Of a stretch of DNA of 64,000 nt, positions 2,575 through 30,651 are shown piece after piece. The notes below the pieces were generated by a model that saw only the letters and a program-made list of their open reading frames with translations, was not told the DNA's origin and made no database searches. Position numbers and translations under genes: made by a program. The stretch spans positions 22,540,150-22,604,149 of the forward strand of contig NC_134026.1 of assembly GCF_964204645.1 (NCBI RefSeq). The letters run 5' to 3'. Positions within the stretch are counted from its first letter, which is position 1; the number at the start of each line of letters is the position of its first letter. This DNA comes from Tubulanus polymorphus. Taxonomy: Eukaryota; Animalia; Nemertea.

Positions 2575-5495
2575 ATGTCTGCATGGTTGAAAATTGGTGA
2601 CTTTTTTGTGCTTCCATGGTCCTGTTCTGGGTTAGAGTCTTCGATTGTTGTAGTAAGGGATCGGATGAGGATTTGTTTCGATATAGGCTACGCTCATCGG
2701 GAAACTGTCGAGGCTGAACATGTTTGCATAACGTATGTTGAAATAAATTCTGGAAACTATAAGCGGAGAGGGTTCAATAATGACTTATCTATTAAATGAA
2801 TTTAAACCTTCCTTCTACTGTATAGGTACATCTAATGTCTATTTCAACCTGACTTGAGAGCATTCCGGGTGGCCTAGCTCAGTCAGTCTTGGTAGTACTT
2901 ATGGAAGCCCTGAAACGACATTACGAATTACGTTTTACGAATTACATTTTAAGTTTTACAAATTACGAGTTACGTTTTACAAATTACGAGTTAGGTTAAC
3001 GATTTACCATATAAGCTCCCTGCATTTCGTATGTCGCGCGAGGTCAAGGTCTTATACAATTACGTTTTACGACTTACGTTTTCCATTGACTTATTGGCTA
3101 TTGCTTAAAAAGGTTTTTGGAAAAACACGGGCTTGCAATGAGTCGAATCATGACGAAGAATGAATCTGACTGAATTTATTTTGCATTTCGAAATATATAC
3201 ATGTATATTGTGAAATTGAGGGAGTTTCGTACGCATTTTTTATTACAAATAATAATAAGACCAAGGAAGTCAAAAAGTGACAATTTCAAATGATCAAAAG
3301 TATAGAGATTCAGCCTGCATACGCCCGGATTCATTAAATAATAAATTACAAACACTGACACTGTCCTGTTTGGCAAGGAAGGGCACAATGATTAAGACGA
3401 TACAAAATTGGAAATTATTCGGGGTTCATGGAAATAAAAAGAAATTGGACTCCATATCGGTGCAGATACAATTCTTCAATTGTAACAAATGATCATAACA
3501 AGTCTTAGCTTTTAATAATGAAAATATATATTTTTATTTGAAAGAAAAGCATTTGTCATCCATCATCGTTATTAGTTGAAGTATTCGGCAAAAAATTACA
3601 ATCGATTTCACCACAGTGCTGCCTTCTGCATGCTACCCAAAGTTTAATATTCACGACACGGAGAGTGCACCACAACCTTGACCTCTTGTGAAAAATTGAA
3701 CCGAAATGTAGTGGTAAATCATTGCCCAAAATAAGTCGTAAAACGTAACTCGTAAGACGTAATTCGTAAAACGTAATTCGTAATGTCGTTTCAGGGCTTC
3801 CATAGTCAGTCTTGGTAGTACATACCTGATAAAGGTCTTAATAGGACCAGAAAGGACTGGCAGTCGACCTAAATCATCATTTTTTCATCCATTTGAAACT
3901 GTATTGAAGGATATCCAAAAAGTCTTCACTGAAAGGGGTTAAATGAAGAGAAGTGACTCCATGATTTGAAAGTTTAACAATATGTTTCCATGCCTACGTA
4001 TCAAATTTCAGTTGGTAGGCATGGACACATATTGTTAAACTTTCTAATCAGGAGTCTCTTTTCTCTCAGGAACCCCCCTCAATGCAGATTTTTTGGATAT
4101 CCTTCAATACAGTTTCAAATGGATTAAAAAATGATGATTTAGGTCGACTGCCAATGCATTCTGGTCCTAATAAGACTTTTATCAGGTATGTACCACCAAA
4201 ACTGACTGAGCTAGGCCACTAGGAATGCTCTCAAGCCAGATTGAAATAGAGATTAGAAAGATATTTGTCTATTTTCGTTGTAGACATGGTCATATCGATC
4301 ATATAGCCGGTATTGCCCATCACACAGCTAAACGAGATTTGTATGGAATGTCGATGCCAACATATTACGCACCGAGTCATCTCGTTGATACTTTGAAAGA
4401 TGTCGGGAAAGTTTTTGGCAAGATGCAAGAGAGGTCTTCATCTATGAACAAGATGAATGTTCAAGGTATTGATTATGATGGAGAAGCAATACAGGTAGGC
4501 TATTAGACAATTGTATTTTCCCTGCTTAACAATATATCTAAGACATCTGGACCCAGTTCCACAGTTGTGAGTTAAGAGTTAACTCTGAGTTAAAGTTAGT
4601 TCATTTTCAATGTTTTAACCCAGGGTCAAATCTTAACTCGGAACTGTGGAACTGGACCCCGGACCCAGTTCCACAGTTGTGAGTTAAGAGTTAACTCTGA
4701 GTTAAAGTTAGTTCATTTTCAATGTTTTAACCCAGGGTCAAATCTTAACTCTGGAACTGTGGAACTGGACCCTGATGATAAGTTGAATTGAATAAAAAAA
4801 TGAAATGTTTTTCAAGACCGCGGACCTATTTTACTTCAATTAGATCATTCGTTGAATCATCTAAATCTTTCATCATCTTTTTCAGCTACCCTGGAATCGT
4901 AAATTAAAAGCCATTAAAACTGAGCATACGGTAAAAAGCCAAGGTTATATTATATATAAGGTCATTAGAACATTGAAACCCGCTTACATACATCTTAATC
5001 CACGTGAAATAGCAAGATTGCATAAAGAAGGACACGTAATACATGACATTATGGAAATTCCGGAAGTGGCTTACACAGGTGAGAACATCTATCTGATTGA
5101 ATCAATAACGAAATGAAATAAGATTCATGCAGGTGTGGCTTTGAATTGATTTTTCGCTTGTCGTTAACCTAGGGGATACTACTATCGCTGCCTTCCTGAA
5201 TCCATCTCAAAACCCGGATATCTTCAAAGTGAAACTGTTGATAACCGAAGCGACTTATATTGATTATATGGATAATGGAAGAAAAGTGAACATGGCTTAC
5301 GATCGTGGACATATGCATTTATGGCACATCGCAGAAAATGCCGAACTATTTAAGGATGTAGAAAACATTTTACTAGTACATTTCTCCGACAGATATGACA
5401 TTACATCTATACAGCAGTATGTTAATAGTTCAGTGCCACCATCATTGAGACATAAAGTTCATCTAGGACTTTGTAAAGGTGCTTTGCGCGAGTGA
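2575..5495 (+). CDS. Short-form tRNase Z (metallo-beta-lactamase fold), TM-type / plant TRZ1-like; exons 2575-2732, 4284-4494, 4886-5078, 5173-5495
   Basis: Phase-compatible exons give FDIG, THGHIDH (HxHxDH), TEHTVKSQGY, a short arm LKPAYIHLNPREIARLHKEG, AYTGDT, ITEAT, GHMH and HFSDRY, the tRNase Z motif series. Confidence 0.85.
2832..4256. mobile_element. ~500-bp foldback MITE, interrupted by a nested element, in intron 1 of the tRNase Z gene
   Basis: Long inverted arms CTAATGTCTATTTCAACCTGACTTGAGAGCATTCC...GGAATGCTCTCAAGCCAGATTGAAATAGAGATTAG; an uninterrupted copy lies at 38056-38560. Confidence 0.85.
2900..3804. mobile_element. Non-autonomous TIR element with TAYGG termini (IS3EU-like), nested in the foldback MITE
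   Basis: TIR TATGGAAGCCCTGAAACGACATTACGAATTACG / CGTAATTCGTAATGTCGTTTCAGGGCTTCCATA with 14-bp-period subterminal repeats (TTACGTTTTACGAA). TAY..RTA termini are described for IS3EU. Confidence 0.7.
4549..4772. mobile_element. Tandem dimer of a ~112-bp MITE
   Basis: Two head-to-tail copies with TIR CCAGTTCCACAGTT / AACTGTGGAACTGG; a related monomer lies at 47172-47264. Confidence 0.8.
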
Positions 5496-6166: not shown

Positions 6167-8046
6167 ATGAAGGCGCGTTGGTGGTTTGCTCGGTTTGCTA
6201 TTTTAGCGTTGTTTGTAGCAGCCGTAATTGCTCAAGAAGATGATGAAGATGACGATGGCCAAGTGCATAAAAAGTACGATGTCTCGGACAAAGTGATTGT
6301 ATCCGCAAGAGTAGAGGTAAGTAGGCCTAATAGACTAATTAGCGCGCAAATGTGTAGTGTTAAGTACCGAAATATAACATCTGATGAAATTACTAAAATT
6401 AGTAAATGCATTGTTAACAATTTTCTTCAGAGTTGCGACGGATGATTATTGAATAGCCTTCCTAAAGTGAAGGCTTTCATATTTGCTGATGTTCCTCGAT
6501 AGTATCCTTCTTATCATTTTTATTTTCTTTCCTTTCTATTGATATGATTTTTAGTTTTCACATTTTTCTATTCTATTCTATTCTTATCTACTATTATTAC
6601 CTCTCTATTGACCTGAAGTTTTTTTCAGGGGCCTATAGCATAGTTTGCCACACCCGAAATCTGAGCATATGTTTAGGAAAAGCGAACGATTTTGGGTGTG
6701 TCTTACATAAGCAAGAGGCCTCCGAAATCATTTTAGTTTCGCTGTTTAAGTGTTGGTTAAGATTTTCTATTTTACTACTTCTTTCAAAGCTTTCTTTTCT
6801 TTTGTCTATTTTTCTTTATATCTTTTTCTTTACATTTTCCTTGTATTTTTTGGTTTTATATTTTACCTGCATATACGATAGACTCTGCTTCCATTTGGGC
6901 ATGTATAACCCAGGACATTCTAAGTGACAATGGGTCATGATCACTGATTAATTAAGTAGAAAAACTTTCAATATTTGGTCTGGGGAATGTGTAAGGTAAT
7001 CGGCTCAGTGGCAAGCAGAATCTAGGGTAATGCTTCTTATGTTACAATTGGAATGCTTAGAATTCCCTTTTTTATATTCCAGAGCTGCGGAGGATGACGA
7101 CTGAATCGCCTTCCACAAGTGAAGGCATTCATTTATCAAGATATTGAACATTAGTATCCTTAGAATAGTAACCAGTCAAATTTGCTTTTTTCAAGTCAGG
7201 TGTTGGAAAAAGGAAAAATTACAGATAGTGGGTAATGGCATAGAATTCATCCTGCTCGCATGAATGAAAAGTCATTTACTCGACGTCATAAGCAATCACA
7301 TTATGATTAGGTCTATTAAGGAGCAAGATTGCACAGACACTCTGAAGTGATGTGGTTTGACAGATACAATGGAACCTCATTGTAATGACTGAGGACATAA
7401 TGATTTATCAGTTATAGCAAACATGGTTCGAATTTTGTCCCAGTCAGGGCAATTTTTTCATTTTCATACTAGATACCACACACTATCGGCTATGATGGAC
7501 ATATTTTATGGTCCCTGGGGTTCATTGTAATGTGGTTCCACTGTTTGATTAATTATCAAAAGAATGAAATTATATTGACCTGAACAAATTTTAGTTCAAA
7601 ATTGATTGATTTCCCATTCTTTTGAACAATTAACACCGTGCATGAAGCCCACTCATAATCTGAATCCGCATGTTTTGAAAATTGTATCCTACATTCATTT
7701 AACTCACGACTTTGACTGTAAATGGATTGCGGTAGTAAAACCCTTGACAATTTTTCTAGCGAAAATGTTCAGTTCAAAACAGTTCCAGGTCTCGATCCTG
7801 TCATCTTTTTCTTGAATAAAGCAGGGGATAAAGTTGAGGTACGTTTTTTTATTAAGTCGCTTTTGATATGTTGATTAGCCACCTCACTTAAAAGCGATCA
7901 TTAAATGTAAACTTGTTATTGCTGTATTTCAGCGAGTCCTGTTGGCCGAGAAGAAAAGAGAAGAGTGTAATAAAGCACTGACGGATAAAGGCTTTAAAAT
8001 GACCAAACCTGAAGTACCATATGAGGAAGATAAAGAAGAGCTTTAA
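6167..8046 (+). CDS. SELENOM: Selenoprotein M: exon1 6167-6316, alternative exon 2a 6431-6501 or 2b 7083-7153 (each with in-frame UGA = Sec), exon3 7760-7838, exon4 7933-8046
   Basis: Signal peptide MKARWWFARFAILALFVAAVIA, then ARVE-SCGGURLNRLPQVKAFIYQDIEHY-ENVQFKTVPGLDPVIFFLNKAGDKVE-RVLLAEKKREECNKALTDKGF...KEEL*. Matches the SelM pattern (CGGU-xLNRL-xxVKAF, PGxDP, C-terminal ER-retrieval tetrapeptide). SECIS present in the 3' UTR. Confidence 0.93.
6502..6510 (+). other. U12-type (minor spliceosome) 5' splice site after SelM exon 2a
   Basis: GTATCCTTC matches the GTATCCTT U12 donor consensus; phase 2. Confidence 0.85.
7154..7759 (+). other. U12-type GT-AG intron after SelM exon 2b
   Basis: Donor GTATCCTT at 7154. 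Branch CCCTTGAC at 7741-7748 with the branch A 12 nt before the AG at 7758-7759. TA+C rebuilds the conserved Tyr codon. Confidence 0.88.
7367..7543. mobile_element. Degenerate Tc1/mariner-type MITE in the SelM intron
   Basis: (TA)CAATGGAACCTCATT...AATGTGGTTCCACTG imperfect TIRs. Confidence 0.5.
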
Positions 8047-8869: not shown

Positions 8870-9132
8870 ATCATTTCAGCGACTAGGTACAAGTCAATAC
8901 TTGAACACTAATATGTTTATCATATAGAAATTGTTTGCTCACCAAACATGTATTTACTGATCAAGTCCGTATTCTTATCCCGGAATGTTTCTCTTCCATC
9001 ATCCTAGTGGAATGTGTTAGTGGTTATCTCAATTGTATGGTTCATTTATGATGGGTAGATGGTGGCATTGTTGAGAAAATCCTCTCCGACTTTAACTAAG
9101 TTTAATGCATCGTTGTCAATGATTAATTGAAA

Positions 9133-9200
9133 GCTGATTGTATGATTTTGTTCATCGAAATATTGCAAAATATGATGGACATTTGATGAAAATTAATAGC
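9133..9200 (+). promoter_or_regulatory. SECIS element (type 2) of SelM
   Basis: AUGA (9142-9145), 12 nt, AAA (9158-9160), mini-stem UAUU-GCAA-AAUA, then helix II UGUUCAUCG/UGAUGGACA and UGAU (9184-9187) completing the GA/GA quartet. Helix I GCU(G)AUUG/UAAUAGC. AATAAA downstream at 9410-9415. Confidence 0.85.
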
Positions 9201-9519
9201 AGCCGTTCAGTTATCTTTACAATAATGATCAATTGCTTTGTATTAGATCGCACGACTTGGATTTTACAAGCCATAAATTTATTTTTTTGGTTAATCATCT
9301 TATGATCTCACCATTTCCTGTACTCTATCTATCATCAAGTCTAACTACTATCAATGACTTTTGAAGTCATGGCAATTATGTTATATGCAAGAAGATTTTC
9401 GATTGAATGAATAAATTCTTATGAAAATTATATTTCAGTTATCTTGGTTAATCTTTACTTCCATTGTACTCCACAGTGCATTCCAAAAGTTACTTCAACA
9501 TTTGACTCCCCTTGATGGG

Positions 9520-10191: not shown

Positions 10192-12016
10192 AATGGAATT
10201 GTATTCTACTCATTGATCATGTTAATTTATGTATCAATAATACAGCGTATTTTATCAGATCCTCATATATCTCCAGACATGCCCGATTCTAGTTACTTTT
10301 GAGACTGCATGGTTATCGTTTCATTATTCAACAAAAATAAGATGAATCCTAAATTTGCAGCACTTTCTATTTAGGGAAAATGTCCACATGAGGAAAATCC
10401 TTGAGAAGTCAACAAGAATGGCTAAAAGATTTTATGAAATGCTGGAATTCCAATTTATTAATTTTCTTCATAAAATTAACTTATTGAAACATTTTATTCA
10501 TCTCCTTTTCGTGAATATTATCACCATCAAGCATCTACGTTATCAGTGAACTGTACATCATTGTATTATTATCCACACGGTAAACATGCTCTTTGTTTTA
10601 CTTTTAAATATAATAATAACATACAAAGAATGTAGTGATGAGAGAGCAATTGCTAATGACATAACAAATTTTGTAAATTCACACATTGATAAACATACAT
10701 CGTGTACGAACCCTACCTATTTTTGCAACATTTTTCAATTAAGCATGAATTTAATTTCACATTTTATTAAATAGGGTCATATTATGTACAATACTTTTTA
10801 ATAGTAGTTAGCAAATTTCCATGCATTTGCATTTATCGATTTATATAAGACCAAGCATCTATGAAGAAAGCATCGCCATTGCATGGGCCACTGCTGTTAA
10901 CTACACGGTTTCCGATTCCATCCTGGATGAACATGTACACATCATACTTTAACTCGCACAAAGAGAATCAGTGGTGCCAGTTGGTGTAGCTTTAAGGTCT
11001 AGATATTCAACATTTTATTATTTAACTAAAGCCTAAGTTGCCAAACGAGGCTACTGCGTGCCAGGCTGCGTGCACCTGATTTTCTAGTTAGGCTTAACAA
11101 AAAATTCTAGGTTCGTTGTTCGGGACGTTGATATCCTTTCGTACATTGTTCATATTAAATGTTAAGCGTTCAATCATTTCCAAGGAAAACTAACTTACAA
11201 ACCATGTTTATTACTACAACGTATTCAAAATATTTTCACTTCACCATTAGATTACGAAAAATGCTGTATTCATGTAGATATACATGTATATTGTATTACT
11301 TAAAGCACCACAATGCTAACACCATTCAATTGGCATTTGCAATATAATGAGATGTCGTAAGATCAATCAGAACACATGTTCTAAGTCAGCCACAAAGAAA
11401 CACTCACACTGCATTGTAAAAGCAGAACCTTTTACATTTCTACATTCGTTATCAAGATGTTTGTCATGTATATGAATTCAAGTTACGAGAGCGTGGAGAC
11501 AGAAATGTAACTACAGAAATGTAACTTGCTGAGGGTTTTAGCCGTACGTGACAAGAAATCTTACAACAGATTCGATTGAGAATAAGGTTAAAATATACTT
11601 GTACCACTGAATATCAAGCAATGTAAGTTTCGTTTACATCCATGATGACGCCAATACACGCATGCTTAGGGCGAGAGAACACTGCTGCTAGTTATATTGT
11701 TTATTCATTTCATTGATATTATGATATTGGTAATAATAATGTTAGAAGTGTTGTGGCGCAGACATGTCAAAGGTACAAAAAATCTCGATGATGATTGTTA
11801 CAAAGGCCTGATAGTTCTGGAGATGGTAAGATAGATAGTAAATTGATGATACAGACAGAGATGATAAGAAAATCATAATAATCATATCGAGTTCAGAAAC
11901 AAAACAAATTTCTCAGAAATCTCTGCACAAAATAATGTCATTATTATTAACAATACACAAGCTCAAAACACCTTGTTTTTTGTACACAGTACGTTACGAT
12001 AATTTGATGAATTTCA

Positions 12017-17571: not shown

Positions 17572-18459
17572 TCATTTCTTCGCCCTTGCTGCTTTAGCCT
17601 TCTGTAAAAGAAAATCGATTAACGTTATTTTGCAAATTGGCATAATACATTAATAGGGCTATTATAGCTGAAAATTGCTCACTGACCGCTTTCGATGGCG
17701 TCTTCTTGGGACTTCTCTTTGTTCCTCGTTTCGCTGCCGTTGTCTTAGAATCCGCTTTTTTGGTTTTAGTAGTTTTACTTTTACCGTCGGCGGCAGCTTT
17801 ATTGGCCGTTTTCTTCGTACCGGTAGCCTTCGTCGGGGTGGCTATCTTTTTTGTTGTTTTTGCTTTAGTTGCTTTTACTGTAGCTTTCACCGTGACCTTC
17901 TTTGCTATTGGTTTCTTACCGGATCCCTCTTCATCGTTCTTCGGTTTCGGCGATTTTTTAGCTTTGGCTTCTTTCGTAATCTTTACCACTTGTTTCTTCT
18001 TAGCTGCAATCGATTTCGGTTTCGGTTTGCTGGCTACTTTTTCCTGTTTTGCTAATTCCGCCTTCACAATTTTGATCCTTCCGCTTAAACTAGTAGGATT
18101 GTCTGCCTGGGTTTTAGGCCGGGAAAGTACGCCACTTTCAAGACCTGAAAAAAAGACAATTGTTCAATTCATTACAAATATATCATATGTTTCAATAATG
18201 TCCCACTAACATAAACAATATCAAATTCAAACCATTTACCTTTGGTTAAGGCTCTCTTAATACGGTGTTTTACGAAGGAGGGATCAATACCATGTTGTTT
18301 GACCAGGTAATCTTTAATGAAATTCACTGATGCTCCCTTCGGATCGTCATTATGCCGGATGGCTTCGATCATCATTTTCAGCGTATCCGGACCGCTAGAA
18401 CGCTTCGGTTTCGGTGGAGATGCATGGACACTTTTTTCAGAATCACTTGAGTCACCCAT
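17572..18459 (-). CDS. Intron-containing linker histone H1, probably oocyte/cleavage-stage type (H1.8/B4-like); 3 exons
   Basis: Globular domain LKMMIEAIRHNDDPKGASVNFIKDYL...IKRALTKGLESGVL...GRIKI, a long K/A-rich tail with SPKK/TPxK motifs, two GT-AG introns, and AATAAA rather than a histone stem-loop. Confidence 0.85.
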
Positions 18460-19433
18460 GATCACAGGTCTAAATACACTATGAATTTTAGCGAGCGAAG
18501 TCTGATCTATTACTCCTATATAGATCGTTGAACCACCGGTTTAAATAGTCCATGTATCCGCAACGAGCCGTGACATGTTTGACCGAATGTCATGTGATTA
18601 CTAAACGGTTTCGATACGAAACTCTAGTTGGCCCTCGCGGTGTGTTTTTTTCTTATCAAAATGCTGTCAAAATACGAAATACGTGCGCGTTTAAAATTCT
18701 ACGAATAAATTTGACATATTTTTTCATAATGGAATTGTATGATTGAGTGAAATAATTCGGGTAGATTATTTCCAGTCTTCGGCATTGCGCAGTTTTGTCG
18801 ACAGAAGTCCATCCAGAAATTGCTTCGTGAATTGGAAAATCGTGGCTTTATCATTTTTGCAGTCAAGTATGCTCACGAAGTTTCAGAATTCACAACCACA
18901 AACCGAAATCTAGATGCTTTCCCAAAAATCTTGATAGAGTCCATCGAAAATATGGGATTAGGTTGGCTTTGAAGAATCGGAACGAGCACACCTGTATCGA
19001 CGAACGATGTTTTCATTTTACTACGAAATAAATAAATTAGGAAGGGTGTATCGAACGAACAAAAGCAATGAAAAATGATTTCCAATAATATACTATCATA
19101 ATCAGATCGCAGACTAAAAATACGCGCACGATACGTTATGGCATCGCGGGGTGTCGGAATGAGTCTCGATGTATTGACAAAGTTGCTGCGAGTCATTAAC
19201 GTTAGACTATTATATCGACACAAGGCTCATATGTAAAACGCTCATTTGCCATAGAAATTGATCAGAATACATATCAACAGTTATATCACCGTTTCAATGA
19301 AGCTTCACAATTTTACAACAACCACGTTGATCATTATTTTCGATTGGGAATCATGAAAATCTCCATGGCCACGGGTGTTGTCACTTCAAGTGATAATTTC
19401 ACATGGTGGATCGTTGGTTGAGTAAATACGGTT

Positions 19434-21562: not shown

Positions 21563-23630
21563 AAATCTCTGAAAAAGATATACTAGCGAGATGTCCGATG
21601 TTAGGTTTGAAATGGCAATAAAGAAATCAAATATTGAAATTTACTGTTTTTGATATGACATTACCCAGTTAAAAGGCACGGGTGGACATTGAAGTCAGTT
21701 TTTCTATCGATGGAAGTTTTCACCTTAGCACCAGAATCCGCCGAAAAACGTGGAGAAGCTATTCAAGCACCAAAACCGTTTGGAATCGTGCATGGAAAAA
21801 TCGAAAATCGTTCGGATGCCTTCTTGAAATGATCTATCTGTCTATCGTGCGTGCTCCAGTCTGGACGGACACTTTCGATTGAAAGATCTGTCAATGTATA
21901 CCCGAAATTCTCCGGGTAAAATGTCAGAAAATGCCCTGAAAGTTGTTACAGAAGATAATAAGTTAAAGAAAGATATTTTCTGTGATCAATTCTTCGCAGC
22001 GTAAAATTGAACAAGAAATTCACGTAGATGCTTAGAACACAGGAAAGAAACACCGGTGCCTGGCCTATATGGGATTCGAAACCAATTTATATCATGTTGA
22101 ATTGAATAATGTTGAATTGAATTGTTGAAGTCTTCGGGTGCCGCTAGGTAGTGCTGTATTCGTTCTACGCGATCGTACTTTCGATTTCTTGCTTAAATTC
22201 ACGGTTGCGAAATATATGAATTAGCATGTTAATGAGCTCTATATAAAATCTAATACATGTTGAATATTTTTGTAAAAGTTTATACGCTCTAAACTATCGA
22301 AATTTTGTGGATAATATCCAAAATGAATCAAATGACAGTTACTTCCGGGTTTTTGACAGTCTGGGTTTAATATAGTCAGTAACCTGTCTGTGGTTTAGTT
22401 TCACGATCGGATATTTTCACAAACCACAGTCAGGAATGGGAAGGTCATTTTTGTATGAAATCTTCGTCAGCCAATTTGACTGACGAGTAATTTGCCTGGC
22501 ATTTCATTGTCTCTTAAGATATCTGTCTAATTTTTGTTGTAATCGACGCACAACAGATTCGTAGTTTGTCTGATACCTATAACACCTCACCTGACGATCT
22601 TAATCCATGTGCAAATCGGCCGTAAAGTGAGAGTAAATTTCCGTCCAGTCAACAGCTGCCATTTCGAAAATTACTGGAGGTGCTGGCACCTGTGGACTGA
22701 GGCCAGGACAACAGCACAAACTAACGAAGCGAAACGACGAAATTAAAAAAAATTAAGAAATCAATACTTATTTACATTTTGCTTTTACCATAAATTTAAT
22801 AATTCATTATTTGTTATGGAAAACACGAAGATTTGAAATAAAAGTTGGAAAACCATCAAAAATAAAAATTGTCGTTTCGTCTTGAAAGTTTTATATAAAT
22901 CCTTGTAGGTCCCCTTGTCTTATCATGCAACATGTGCAATACAGAGAAATGGCGGCCAATGGCGAAATTTGTGGAGAAATTAATCAATTTCTCAAAATAA
23001 TGTTGATTAATCACTCGAAACATACATAAAATTGGATTATTTCGAAAGGTACCTGTGTTAGTTTGTGAATTAAGCCATTAATTGTGGACTGAAGTGAATA
23101 GAAAGTATATTTTTGAAGTGTTACTTTTTTCAACCGTGTTTTGGTCCTTGTCATCCCTAACGTTGGTATAAGCCCATCCGATTATAAAAAGCTTACCACC
23201 AACGATTAGGTAACTAACTAGGTTTAATACGTTCCGCATCTACAGAAATGTAATTTTCACATTTTCCACCAAGGCGCAACAATATCTATTTCTATTTGTC
23301 GAGTCCATTCCTCCACAAAACTAATTTTACATTCCAAATAGGTTTATAGAAAGTTAAATGGTCAATAAAAAATGGAAAATGTATAAGATGGCGGTAATAT
23401 TGCCATGCCACCCTAAAAATCCTTGCATATAAAGGCCTCTGCTAGGAAAAATGTTCGACCCCTATGTTGAAAGAATTATGTGATAAAGCTTTGCTCGCTA
23501 CAAATGCTTTGATAGAACATTTTCAAAACTAGTTCGTGAAATTAGTCACAGAAATCGAGACTTATCTAAATCTACAACTAATGCTAATATGCATTTTCTT
23601 CAAATTTCGAGAGTTTCAGTAGACGTCGCT

Positions 23631-26600
23631 ATGGACTTTCTAGCCGAGAACAACCCGTGCGGTCAGAATATACTGCGTCTCGTTTCAAGGGGAAACGCTA
23701 TTATTGCGGAATTGCTTCGTTTATCAGATTTTATCCCGCCTGTTTTTAAACTAGAAAACAAACAAGACATTCAAAAATATGGCGAGCTGATGGCAGACTT
23801 CAGCTATTTCCAAAGCGCTGAATATTTCGATAACAAAATCGATTCGAAGGCAGTGAGTTCAAAATTTCATACGTGTATGATCTCAATGATTGGAATATTC
23901 GTATAAATTTTGTGATCATTTTTGTTTTCAGGAGCTGCAAGATTTAGACGAAGAATTTCGTGAAAATCATATTGAAATTTTAACGCGGTTTTACCTGGCG
24001 TTTGAAAGTGTGCACAAATATGTGGTCGATTTGAATCACTACATCAGTGAATTAGACGAATGTGTCTATGTTCACCAAACCCTTGAATCTGTCCTGCTAA
24101 ACGAGGATGGCAAGCAACTACTGGTAAGATATGATAAGATCCGCTAATCTTTGCTTATCATCGATGAATTGTGACCATGAGGCTTAGATCCTATATTGCA
24201 TGTTCAGTCGCGGTGGCAAGATTCTGTTCCCTGGCTATGACTTGATGCTTTGATTTGTATGTCTGCAAAGAAGTCTGATCCTTGCTGAACAAATTATAAA
24301 TTTGTATAATACATTTCAGTGTGAAGGGCTTTATCTCTATGGAATTATGTTAATCCTTCTGGATCTTAAAATTGAGGGGCCTGTTCGAGAAAGAATGCTG
24401 GTTTCCTATCACAGATACAGGTGTGTTTTCGATATCTTCAGTTCCTTTGAAGACTTGGAAGTTTCATAAGATCTTCTTCCACTTCTGAATATTTCAAATA
24501 ATTCCAGCGCTCAAAATGCAGCCATCAATTCTAATATCGATGATGTCTGCAACTTGTTACGAAATACTAACTTTTCCAATACTCCTGGAACAAGAAGACC
24601 AGCCAGTTATCCTGAATCTTATTTTGGGTAAGTATCTGTTAGGAACTGTAATACCAAGATATCTTGCATACAGCAAATGATAATTTGATATTCATCATTT
24701 TATTGTAAAAGAGAGCTTCATATGCAGCTCACATATCAAATAATATAAAAATATAAAATGTGACGGGGCGTTATACAGGAGGTTGACTGTAATAGGATCA
24801 TCAAAATCGTAATACATTTCAAGGGCAGAATTCTAAATGAAAATGTCCACTTAATTACAGACGAATACCAATTGATAATGATTTCGTCAGCATGGTAATT
24901 GGTCGCCTTCGTTCCGACGATATCTACAATCAGATATCGGCTTATCCGATGCCGGAACACCGCAGCACAGCTTTAGCCAATCAGGCGGCTATGTTATACG
25001 TTTGCTTGTATTTTGCACCATCGATTCTACACAACCAACAAGCGATTATGAGGGAGATTGTTGATAAACACTTCCCTGATAATTGGGTGAGTAATTCAAT
25101 CCTGTATTCTTTTACTAGAGATAATTTTTGGAAAAGCATGTTATACCAATAATGATGAAAGATCCACTAATTTGAATGCAAAAGGAAAATTTTTAAAATC
25201 TTTAGATTGTCATTAATTTATTACGTTATTTCATAGAGTAAAAAGTGATGCTACACTTATTGTACAATTTGTACGTCATATTGCAGGTTATATCAATATA
25301 TATGGGTATAACAGTCAATCTGCTCGATGCCTGGACACCGTATAAAGCTGCTCTGACTGCTCTCAGTAACACACTGGATACAAATAACATTCGCCAGTTA
25401 GTAAGTGTCTACGTTGATAAACATTACTAACATTGTTGTATGGATATGCATTAAATCTTTATTGATACAAAATTGTAGTGACAGTTCTTAAAAAGGGCGT
25501 TTACCACCGAATAAAAAGGTTTGGACCCCTCCCTATGGATATGAAAGCTAGATATAGTCTTGATAATAATACATTCATCCATGGAGCATACATCATAAAA
25601 TATGAGTTTTTAGTTAATCAGCACATTTATATCATATTTTTCTTTCAATACCAAAACTGTTTCATTATCAACAGGCAACAAGGTTTGCTGGTAAGGTACA
25701 GAAATTGATGCCCGCTGTTCAGAAATACCTGAAAGAAGGTGTTTTAGAGGATGAGTTTGTATTGGATAACGTACCAAAACTCATCAATGTCCTACGTGAG
25801 GCGAATGTTACCATACGCTGGATGATGTTACATACATCAATCCTTAGTTCGAGTATGTCTGCTTTTCATAGAATCATTCGATCAATTTTGCGAAATGTTT
25901 GACGCTGGAATTGTTTCTTATACTGATTGAATTTGTTTTCAAAGGTGCCGAAGCGAACAAGCGCTGTCGTCAGATAAGAGATCAAGTTATCGCAGACAGC
26001 AGATACAGTCCATTGGTGGTATTCAATTTACTCCTGAATACAGGACAGTTCGAATTCAAACTGAAAGAGGTAAAATTTATTGTTTTTGTCCCGTCAATTT
26101 TAGTAAAGAGTTTATGCCGAATAGCACTCGATCTTACCTTTACTGTAGTTATTCAAACGTATGTTGCTTGAGAAAAAGGAGAACTGGGAGAAATATAAAA
26201 AGGAAGGCAGTGAGAGAATGCAAGAGCTCAGTGAAGTGTTCTCCGGGACAAAACCTCTTACGAGAGTTGAGAAAAATGGTATGTAATTTGAGTTAAATCT
26301 ATTTTTAACTGACTTAAGGTTAAAGCTCCAGTGGACTATTGCATTCACTTTTCGTCTGTCTGTTTGGTTGTCTGTTGTCAGATTGTCAAGCATTTCATCA
26401 AGTGGCCATGGTGTCCCTGGATCCCTAGTTGTTATCTGGAGTTTGCTATCAGTTTTATTTGTTAATTTCTAGATAATCTGCAAGCATGGTTTGGTGATAT
26501 GAATAAACAAATTGATTCCCTTGCGTATGATGATTCAACTTCTGTGGGCAGGAAGATTGTTCAGCTTATTCAAGCTTTAGAAGGGGTTTGTTTCATTTTG

Positions 26601-29600
26601 AAAGTCACATGAAATGATCACACTTTATTGTCCCTCCCTATAATATAATATATTGTCCCTATATATCCTCCTAGATAATTTGAAAGGCTCTACATATTTA
26701 ATGGCAGTATTCATTGACAGGTGCAAGAATTTCACCAGTTGGACAGTAACATGCAAGTTATGCAGTTTCTGTTGGACACTCGGAAATATCTGAATCAGAT
26801 GATCCGTACTATTAACATCAATGAAGAAGTGCTTATCACTATTCAGATAGTGGCAGATATATCATATGCATGGTGTATCATCGATAGGTATGTAGCCGAA
26901 GATTTTTTAAATCAATTAAGAATGATTGCTAAAACAGCAATCCATCACTGAATGTAAAGTGAAGATGATTTAGTTTTACCAGCGACTACAAGTGATTAAA
27001 ATAGACAGTGGTTTGATTTCAGTTTCACTCAAGAAATGCAGAATGGTATCAAACAAGATCCATCATTGGTGATAAAGCTTCGTGCAACATTTCTTAAGGT
27101 AAGTACAATGCTTATTAATGGATAAAAACGAGACAATACCCCATAACCAACACAGTATTTGATTTCTCTCTATTTGATGAATGTTTTAGATGTCATCTGC
27201 TCTTGAAATTCCTCTACTGCGAATAAATCAAGCCAATAGTCCCGATTTGATAAGTGTGTCGCAGTACTATTCTGGAGAATTGGTTGCATATGTCCGAAAA
27301 GTCTTACAAGTGAGTTGTATATCCTCAAATGTGGAACTGGACCAGAATTTTACTTGAAGTAGTACACAAACCTATTCACAGGAAAACTTTTTTTTTTAAC
27401 AGATCATTCCACAAACAATGTTTGCCCTTCTGGCAAAAATTATTCATATTCTGACACATCAGATGCATGAACTACCAACAAGATTAGAAAAAGAGAAAAT
27501 GCGTGAATATGCTCAACTGGATGAAAGATTTGAGGTATTGTACATTTACCAGTACTTTAAATTAATCTTTTCATAAAGAATGTAACTATGTGGTTGGAAG
27601 AGGACTAAAACTTCTCTTAATGCTTTAAGATGCATACGGACTAAGGGACGCCTACATCTGTTATCTTTGTAATTAAATAGGTGGCGCAATTGACTCATTC
27701 AATATCTGTATTTACCGAAGGGATTTTGATGATGAAAACGACCTTAGTTGGAATAATCAAGGTACTACTAGATAGAAGACCTCCTACTATGGAGAAGCCA
27801 TCACTTATTTTACATTCAACCGATTTTTTCCAATGCAGGTCGATCCGAAGCAACTTTTGGAAGATGGAATCAGGAAAGAACTGGTTCAACGTGTAGCTTT
27901 AGCTTTACATCAAGGACTTATTTTTAACCAGAAAGCGAAGGTATCGTCAGAAACTATTAGTGTTATCAACCAGATAGTACCTCATAAACTTGTAGCTTGC
28001 ATCTAGTTTTGATGCATTTACAGTAGCTCCTTGTTAAAACAATTCAATATGAGAAACTGAAATTTCAGCCGCGAACAAGATTTCATCGAAATTATATGAG
28101 ATGGTGGATTAAATTTTGCAACCTTTATTACTAGCATAATTGTTGAATACTTACAGTCGAGTGAATTGATTCCGAGACTGGAAGCTTTAGGAGCTACGAT
28201 GGATGGATTCAGACGATCGTTCGAGTATATACAGGATTATGTCAATATTTCTGGCTTGAAAATATGGCAAGAAGAAATGTCCCGAATTATCAACTTCAAC
28301 GTTGAACTCGAGTGCAACAGCTTTCTTCGAACTAAGGTAGATTGACACAATAAACTGATCTCACAACTTTGGAACACTTAGTCCAGATCACATTTTTCCG
28401 CTATGACAATCGGTCTAAGATTTTACCTTGGCCAGAAATTGTATTCTTAACTAACTCCTTTGTTCACAGATTCAAGAATGGCAAAGTGTCTATCAATCCT
28501 CGACAATACGCATTCCAACGTACCCGCCTGTCGATAACCAGTCTGTAAACTTCATTGGACGTTTAGCTCGGGAAATTATTAGAATTACTGATCCGAAGTA
28601 AGTGATCTTAAGAAAACAAGATAAGATCTGCAGAAATTGAAAGTTATGGGTATAAGCTACAGGTAAATTGCATGGCTAAAGATGACTGTTGATATTGATC
28701 AATTCAGGACTACTAGTTATATCGATCAGATGAACAACTGGTACGATTATCGATCAAAACAGGAAGTCATGAATATGAGGATGTTCCGTCGATTAGAGGT
28801 GAATTAACTGTCTTATTACCTCTTACCCCTTAGCATATCTAAAACTGTCACCGAGCACTCCTTACTGGATCATGAGCGTTGTTAGCAAATCAACATTTCA
28901 CATAACACCATAATGTTTGTTTCTTTCAGAGAGGTGTTGGTACATTCGGTTTGACAGGACTTGATCGATTGATGAGTTTTATGATTGTTCAGGAATTGCA
29001 GAACTTCATATTAAGACTCAAACGTAACGTGTTCAAGGACAAAATGACCATGGAGGTTTTTGGCACACTGCTCAAATCGGTTGCACCAGTCAAAGGAATC
29101 ATAGGTAAAAGGATAAATTTAATCGGGCTCGATTGCATTAAAAGAAAGATATTTTACAAAGCATTTAGGTTGTGCCTTCATGGAAATATCAAAGCTGATG
29201 GCTTAACAGATTAAAGTTCACATCTCTTTAACATAGAATTGTTTACGAACTTAGCCCTAGATGTGTGAGAGGATATACTCCAATATTTCTGTTTTTTAAG
29301 CACAACCTCAAAGAGTTTACTCGGCTGCTTCCTCAAAGATAACAAAAATCTGGCCCTTATTTCTGGATATGATATTGAAGGTGAGAATTGCTGTTAATTT
29401 GTTATTATTTGTGTTCTAATTTCCCTTCTACGTGTGTTCATATTGCAATCCTTCATTGTAGGTTGGACAAATGCAGTTATTAAGAAGGCAAATCATCAAT
29501 GAGCTCAATACAAGCTGTAAATTTGATTCTAAATTCCTTGCCAGCTCACTACAAACACTGAATGAGTAAGTATATTTGTGTATTGTAGGTACTTTTATCG

Positions 29601-30651
29601 GTAGAAGGTATCTAGAGAGTGAGAAATTGGATTGTTGATACAGAATATTTACAATATTTTGAATATATTACAAATTATCATTTTAGGGCACTTTTGGCCG
29701 ATATCGAAAGGCATTATCAAGATCCTACAAAACCGTATCCAAAAGAAGACAATCCCCTTATGTATGAGTTGACTTCATACTTGGAAAATGCTGGTATTAC
29801 GAAACCACTGACCAAGATTTACATCACTACTGAGAAAATGCCATACCTCGCCATCTTCCTGTTCATGCTAGTCATTTCGCAACTGCCAAAACTAGTCTAT
29901 ATGAAGACAGTAGGTAAGAGTCGATACACAAATTTCAAATGATACAAGTGGTACTGGTAAACCATTTGACCTATGTGTCCGCTATAGCTATGAATAAAAG
30001 CATGTTGCAGTCTGTATGCATACGTATGGTATTATTTTTAGGGAGCATGGTGTGTAAGAAGCCAGCAGAGCCGCTGGATGGTCCCCCATTTGTTGTAGGA
30101 GTGCTGACTCTACTGCGTCAATTCCATCCAGAGAACACAACGCAGTTCATTTCCTTATTAGGACAATTTGTACGATCACATGTGGAAACTTGTCAAAGCG
30201 CTAAAACTCCCGAACTTCCCCAGGACGTCGTCAACGCTTTAGTTTTCATCGACGATTTTATCTACTACAGTGGAACTTCGAAAAAGGTCAGTAGTAACAT
30301 ATAATTTTTTGTGAAATCAATAATACCAGCGTTTTGACACAAATAACGAGAGAAATCCCACAATAAATTCAGCTAAAGACTATTAGCCATCATCGTACGG
30401 ATGATGGCTAATAGTCTTTAGCCGAAACGTTGCGCAATATATATATATATACTCTTCTATTCAAGTTTCACGTTTTGACTGAATTTATTGTGGGATTTCT
30501 CTCGTTATCATCTTACACGGATATTGTGTATCTTCTCGACTTGACACAAATATTTTCCAATTTTATTTTTGTTCATATTTTGTTTCAGATGGTTGAAAGT
30601 CACATTCCTAGTTACATTATGGACCAATTCAAAGCACTGAATGCTCAGTAA
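23631..30651 (+). CDS. WASHC5: WASH complex subunit 5 (strumpellin), more than 20 exons
   Basis: [102 protein letters not shown]..., [13 protein letters not shown]; stop at 30651. Confidence 0.97.
26320..26430 (+). mobile_element. Internally deleted mini-HINE in a WASHC5 intron
   Basis: CTATTGCATTCACTTTTCGTCTGTCTG (GTCY microsatellite end) joined to CAAGTGGCCATGGTGTCCCTGGATCCCTAGTT (3' end). Confidence 0.6.
30343..30508 (+). mobile_element. Penelope-like retroelement remnant with inverted ends and a hammerhead-like motif, in the last WASHC5 intron
   Basis: Outer inverted repeat ATAACGAGAGAAATCCCACAATAAATTCAG / CTGAATTTATTGTGGGATTTCTCTCGTTAT. Inner GATGA-T-GGCTAA-loop-TTAGCC-GAAACGTT. Confidence 0.55.

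Follow-up and report, generated by a model that had tools for sequence, protein, structure and literature searches.

Selenoprotein M (SelM) is predicted to act as a redox enzyme in the endoplasmic reticulum (ER), and its substrates and chemistry are poorly defined. The splice layout to which the SelM gene described here is best compared is that of the JNK genes. In vertebrate JNK, a U12/U2 hybrid intron 'cannot be properly spliced', and it is the pyrimidine tract that determines which exon is the default; for JNK2, the hybrid intron accompanies an exclusive exon choice, which is governed by the pyrimidine tract (PMC1874599; papers given by PMC number are cited here and below from excerpts). 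Among human clusters, exclusive splicing of this U12/U2 type is seldom seen (5 of 629; PMC5740500). Hybrid introns form an annotated class of which only few members respond to inhibition of the minor spliceosome (PMC11347168), and the block of cross-type splicing may therefore not be absolute.

For selenoproteins, the nearest precedent for a swapped selenocysteine (Sec) exon is the ascidian selenophosphate synthetase SPS-ae, in which alternative 5′ exons give Sec or Gly forms (PMC4561486). Amphioxus SelP has repeated Sec domains (PMC3473315). In the oyster alternative oxidase exon 10 is duplicated, both forms are expressed and a switch under stress was shown (PMC5589949). A first-pass annotation of the DNA analysed here had stated that no selenoprotein with duplicated, mutually exclusive Sec exons was described. 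This holds among the literature matches listed, and SPS-ae has to be named as a partial precedent. The full-text search, with subscription journals mostly outside its scope, gave no duplicated or mutually exclusive internal Sec exon among the matches listed, and the literature on SelM isoforms and minor introns contained no duplicated Sec exon among the matches listed. In its excerpts, a catalogue of human exons duplicated in tandem (PMC8373072) has no SELENO, TXNRD, GPX, MSRB or SEPHS entry, with MAPK9 present as a control. Likewise, the excerpts of PMC3473315 and PMC4244043 hold no case of a duplicated Sec exon, and those of the SELENOM review PMC10668967 do not mention a second one.

A SelM gene with two Sec exons

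The gene studied here is a genuine SelM gene in which the Sec exon is duplicated in tandem and the splice layout is of the JNK type. It lies in a stretch of 64,000 nucleotides of the nemertean Tubulanus polymorphus (the window), which has a GC content of ~36%. The features of the gene are as follows:

6167..6316, +: coding part of exon 1, with a signal-peptide-like N-terminus (judged by eye), an acidic linker and strand beta1; aligns with the N-termini of SelM homologues
6317, +: U2-type donor GTAAGT of exon 1
6317..6430, +: intron 1 up to exon 2a, U2-U2, 114 nt, in frame and stop-free
6431..6501, +: exon 2a, Sec exon with CDGU, the derived copy; active-site loop and helix alpha1 (mapped from a homologue model)
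6502..6509, +: U12-type 5′ splice site GTATCCTT of exon 2a (compare human CTA/GTATCCTTC)
6502..7082, +: hybrid intron between 2a and 2b, with a U12 donor and a U2-type acceptor (16/20 pyrimidines), without a U12 branch site
7083..7153, +: exon 2b, Sec exon with CGGU, near the family consensus; predicted default
7154..7161, +: U12-type 5′ splice site GTATCCTT of exon 2b
7742..7748, +: CCTTGAC, a branch site of U12 type; its branch A (7747) lies 12 nt ahead of the acceptor G
7760..7838, +: exon 3, 79 nt, common to both forms, with the U2-type donor GTACGT
7933..8046, +: coding part of exon 4, ending in KEEL and then TAA; ER-retention-like signal
9124..9213, +: SECIS candidate, type 2, with ATGAT at 9142-9146, AAA at 9158-9160, TGAT at 9184-9187 and a flanking helix I
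9410..9415, +: candidate polyadenylation signal AATAAA, the first after the stop codon

The first-pass annotation had described exons 2a and 2b as paralogous Sec exons of 71 nt, and their coordinates, lengths and translations were all reproduced. Both are in phase 0/2, follow an AG acceptor and carry TGA as codon 5. Exon 2a encodes SCDGULLNSLPKVKAFIFADVPR and exon 2b encodes SCGGURLNRLPQVKAFIYQDIEH; they are identical at 50 of 71 nucleotides and 14 of 23 amino acids. The frame relations were also as first described. Either exon on its own joins exons 1 and 3 in frame, resulting in 414 nt and 137 amino acids with one Sec and the KEEL end. With both included, the 485 nt contain a TAA where 2a meets 2b and give a product of 73 amino acids; with neither, the frame shifts and a stop follows at 69 amino acids. 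A profile scan of the whole window found no third copy of the Sec exon (next best score 6.9, compared to 66.9 and 49.9). Retention of intron 1 (6317-6430) would add 38 amino acids ahead of exon 2a; the chance that this intron is stop-free was ~0.04 by shuffling, times one third for its length. When the frame running from exon 1 through intron 1 into exon 2a was used as a query, it gave 0 homologue matches among 4 candidates.

Exon 2b matches the Pfam family Sep15_SelM (PF08806; cut-off 26) with 30.4 bits, exon 2a stays below the cut-off with 20.0 bits, and exon 3 matches the family as a fragment under the cut-off. In addition, exon 2b matches the structure of mouse SelM (2A2P) with an E value of 3.6e-6. 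The Sep15/SelM domain carries CxxU and not CxU as in Sep15, and a hydrophobic N-terminus and the KEEL end, both judged by eye, are ER-targeting features. TGA is found at the Sec codon in all 24 homologous SelM loci from metagenome contigs, which were retrieved with a pattern that also allowed Cys. The fold was modelled for one homologue, L001, and not for the window isoforms themselves; it has a pLDDT of 83.6 and 2A2P as its best structural match (E 1.3e-8). Mapped on this model, the Sec exon covers the CxxU loop and the entire first helix. None of the proteins in our profile searches (37, the best 150 of 952, and 17 proteins) closely matched this species. Within the family, a 207-residue protein (P0040) contains two tandem SelM domains with CSAC and CSGC, which is a duplication of the whole domain, and two SelM-like proteins (P0130 and P0156) combine CDGC with a cysteine-rich C-terminal extension.

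The SECIS candidate is located 1.1 kb past the stop codon and ahead of the first AATAAA (9410), and it would be common to both predicted isoforms. The search pattern matched the + strand of the 64 kb only at 9142, with 2 more matches on the - strand; among homologous 3′ regions, this pattern detects an element in 11 of 17. The fold of the candidate is modest (z -1.79; 10/200 shuffles). Rfam gave no SECIS match in the window, and its SECIS_1 model, at E <= 10, recovers just 3 among 18 homologous loci, 1 of them above the cut-off. A SECIS model made from 8 homologues contained no base pairs, and its lack of matches carries no information on the candidate. SECIS elements of SelM in non-placental vertebrates have AA (PMC3316567).

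The surroundings of the SelM gene include a linker histone H1-like gene (17594-18540, -) and strumpellin exons (23487-30304, +). A ribonuclease Z-like frame (5145-5495, +) ends ~670 nt upstream of the SelM start; its NCBIfam match is weak (E 8.7e-7) and far under the cut-off. Between 4549 and 4772, a 112-bp unit occurs twice, head-to-tail and 99% alike, with ends that look palindromic; this is possibly a small transposon.

Splice-site types and exon choice

The U12-type donors of exons 2a and 2b and the U12-type branch site had gone unremarked in the first-pass annotation. The octanucleotide GTATCCTT stands at the end of both Sec exons and has no further occurrence on the + strand of the 64 kb. 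By chance ~1.3 occurrences are expected per strand, and both are placed exactly at the exon ends. Scoring was against general U12 consensus strings rather than a species-trained weight matrix; these strings are consistent with the SELENOM entries for human and mouse in PMC6717393. A CCTTGAC-type motif at the matching distance was found at only 16 of the 6779 AG sites in the window, and the distance of 12 nt falls within the optimum of 11-13 nt between branch site and acceptor of U12 introns (PMC3584512). The acceptors of 2a and 2b, on the other hand, have 14/20 and 16/20 pyrimidines, respectively, and do not contain the CC of a U12 branch site, with best consensus matches of 6/9 (2a) and 5/9 (2b). 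Since the donors are U12 and the acceptor of 2b is U2-type, the intron between the two copies is a U12/U2 hybrid. Elsewhere in the window, ATATCCTTTC occurs at 11131 (+) with CCTTGAC...CAC ~1.9 kb downstream, which may be a chance occurrence or an AT-AC minor intron of a gene nearby.

This layout suggests how exclusive exon use could be achieved. The major spliceosome would join exon 1, with its U2 donor, to the U2-type acceptor of 2a or 2b, and the minor spliceosome would join the chosen Sec exon (U12 donor) to exon 3 (U12 branch site). Joining of 2a to 2b (U12 to U2) and of exon 1 to exon 3 (U2 to U12) would be cross-type and is predicted to be blocked, with the frameshift as a back-up should this block leak. 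The mutual exclusion claimed in the first-pass annotation thus finds stronger support than was claimed, as the U12/U2 layout supplies a predicted mechanism for it. Two other locks were considered and rejected. Steric hindrance is ruled out by the 581 nt of the middle intron, and a docker/selector RNA structure was dismissed because no perfect complementarity of more than 9 nt exists between the introns (exact matches). Exon 2b is predicted to be the default exon because of its stronger pyrimidine tract and consensus-like sequence. Exon 2a would be a minor or regulated form, in which the acidic active-site region would alter the pKa of selenol and thiol or the binding of partners. All in all, we think it likely that a single SelM gene places exactly one Sec exon in each mRNA and yields two isoforms of 137 amino acids that differ in the active-site loop and the first helix.

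A minor intron is listed for SELENOM of human and mouse as well, with the donor contexts CTA/GTATCCTTC and GTA/GTATCCTTT, respectively (PMC6717393), and the common TA exon end suggests that it has the same position as the one in the window. Of the 24 SelM loci that our pattern retrieved from metagenome contigs, 8 look genomic. In 6 of these 8, an intron lies at the end of the 71-nt segment or close to it, and 4 of the 6 have the U12 donor GTATCCT at +71 (L008, L018, L021 and L022). Of the others, L011 has a U2 donor at the boundary, L014 is unclear, L006 has an intron elsewhere and L012 has none. The SelM genes of L011 (2800-2880) and L008 are closely similar and have a U2 and a U12 donor, respectively, which is likely the result of a U12-to-U2 conversion. 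The minor intron after the Sec exon looks ancestral. Duplication of the exon together with its splice sites ahead of such an ancestral U12 intron would create the layout at once. No second Sec-exon copy was found in the 24 metagenome loci, including the 8 genomic ones, all of which are distant and 7 of which span exon 1 to exon 3; the duplication therefore looks restricted to a lineage. We also searched for alternative exon-2 pairs among the proteins of other species, with the segment located in 195 of 234 proteins, and found none: the 212 close pairs differ by at most 3 residues in the segment.

Constraint on exon 2a and the active-site region

Comparison of 2a and 2b by the Nei-Gojobori method gave pS 0.50, pN 0.25, dS 0.82, dN 0.30 and a dN/dS of 0.37; with only 15 synonymous sites, pN reached or exceeded pS in 3.2% of 5000 bootstraps. 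As a pairwise dN/dS cannot assign the constraint to 2a, neutral decay of this exon was simulated in 200,000 runs with substitutions only and no indels, using nine columns whose conservation among 27 homologues is 90% or more. The splice sites, CxxU, the open frame and the conserved columns survived in a fraction of 1.5e-5 at 0.41 substitutions per site, 1.8e-3 at 0.2 and 3.9e-2 at 0.1. Moreover, all 9 amino acid differences between 2a and 2b fall in columns that are variable among 109 distinct homologous segments. Mean conservation at the differing columns was 0.41 compared to 0.66 (permutation p ~1e-4, which is too small a value, as the motif used to pick the segments fixed some of the conserved columns). 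The dissimilarity of the flanking introns, also part of the first-pass annotation, was recovered in three of four comparisons, which scored like shuffles; the 112 nt upstream are borderline, with 23 of 300 shuffles scoring as high. The substitution pattern and the constraint on 2a argue for the earlier proposal that both exons are under selection. The profile score of 2a (49.9) is lower than those of all 23 homologues (51.5-76.9, leave-one-out), and its residues A19 and L6 occur in 0 and 1 of the 109 homologues, respectively; this low score and these rare residues would also fit relaxed selection. On the best reading, selection at the protein level has probably acted on exon 2a through most of its history.

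The active-site motif CGGU had been called canonical for SelM, which applies to vertebrates (PMC10668967, in excerpt) and not to the family as a whole. The first x of CxxU varies among the 109 distinct segments (S 41, G 21, A 13, R 10, K 10, P 6, D 3, others 5). As CDG is present in 3 of these, one of which reads CDGCLL, the change from G to D alone lies within natural variation. Among the segments that have W in place of Sec (40), none has D at this site; the W is probably UGA read as Trp, and in some C forms a Sec may have been written as C. The net charge of the first nine residues is +2 in 2b, the commonest value, and -1 in 2a, outside the range of 0 to +3 of all 109 segments. It is this charge shift around the site, and not the change from G to D, that is the more unusual feature of 2a. 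An acidic surround raises the pKa of a thiol or selenol. The XX dipeptide shifts the redox potential in thioredoxin-fold proteins (PMC2665069). A functional difference between the isoforms is plausible, given expression of both exons, and we put it forward tentatively, at a little under an even chance. It is possible, and to us rather doubtful, that a tissue- or stress-controlled switch operates between a basic CGGU and an acidic CDGU form with different redox potentials or clients, kept exclusive by the minor spliceosome.

Other explanations of exon 2a have to be weighed against its use in a second isoform. It might be a recently silenced or barely used duplicate that was constrained earlier and is now skipped, so that the gene makes one ordinary CGGU SelM. 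This would fit the profile and Pfam scores of 2a, which are lower than those of 2b, its weaker pyrimidine tract (14/20 versus 16/20), its rare residues at three positions and the absence of a second copy from 8 other genomic loci. However, the 81 nt of the exon and its splice signals contain no lesion despite a dS of ~0.8, the substitutions avoid conserved columns, and the CDG homologues, with CDGCLL among them, speak against silencing; we consider this explanation unlikely. An only apparent constraint is a further alternative, either because gene conversion from 2b repairs the core of 2a or because the copies are an artefact of assembly or haplotypes. Codons 13-17 in the centre are indeed near-identical in DNA. 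On the other hand, differences, including synonymous ones, occur throughout the exon, the longest identical stretch being ~10 nt, and a divergence of 30% with unrelated flanks is not allelic, so that this alternative appears highly improbable.

Exon 2a could also act mainly on the output of the gene. Its U12 donor would bind U11 and draw splicing to 2a, and the level of SelM would follow the activity of the minor spliceosome: when minor splicing is slow, the next intron would be retained, and an in-frame TAG at the exon end would lead to decay. Intron retention after either exon does create this TA/G stop, the U12 donor of 2a is perfectly kept, and the donor of 2b could compete for the same branch site. 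For a decoy, however, constraint at the protein level across 2a is unexpected, and the TA/G context is also found in single-exon orthologues. We therefore regard a mainly regulatory exon 2a as very unlikely, and continue with the reading of two isoforms that each contain one Sec exon.

Comparison with known systems

The gene in the window resembles the SelM family, represented by mouse 2A2P, in the CxxU before helix alpha1, the signal-peptide-like start and the ER-retention-like end, as well as in a SECIS element (here a candidate) with AA and a minor intron after an exon ending in TA. It differs in the Sec exon, which is present twice in the window gene and has no second copy in 8 other genomic loci. 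With SPS-ae it shares the principle of one selenoprotein gene with one SECIS (a candidate here) and alternative exons over the Sec position. In SPS-ae, according to the excerpts, the alternatives are 5′ exons that give Sec or Gly, whereas the SelM exons are internal, in tandem and of equal length, both encode Sec, and they are bounded by minor-spliceosome sites. Like the oyster alternative oxidase, it is a redox enzyme of an invertebrate in which one exon copy is conserved and the other derived. In the oyster gene, by contrast, the duplicated exon is terminal and has no Sec, and a minor intron is not mentioned in the excerpts (PMC5589949).

If both isoforms exist, they would be two natural forms, 9 residues apart, and thereby a clean test of how the sequence close to Sec affects redox behaviour and partner choice. 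If in addition the switch were real, it would offer a natural paired test of what sets the chemistry and substrates of SelM, in which the SECIS and the remainder of the protein stay the same. The case would also show how duplication of an exon ahead of an ancient minor intron can bring about exclusive splicing immediately. Moreover, selenoproteome counts can miss isoforms, because standard gene finders are expected to fail both on UGA and on U12 splice sites.

The closest match in splice layout is found in exons 6a and 6b of JNK (MAPK8/9/10). Both systems have a U2 upstream intron, a U12/U2 intron between the duplicates and a U12 downstream intron, and in the window gene, too, the exons are tandem, paralogous and equal in length and phase. 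The gene and the lineage are different ones. Unlike the JNK exon, the Sec exon has a length that is not a multiple of three and holds catalytic residues and a recoded UGA. Exclusive exon use was shown experimentally for JNK2, whereas for this SelM gene it is predicted from the sequence. The splicing lock is thus already known from JNK, and the duplicated internal Sec exon appears, within the literature searched, to be the new element.
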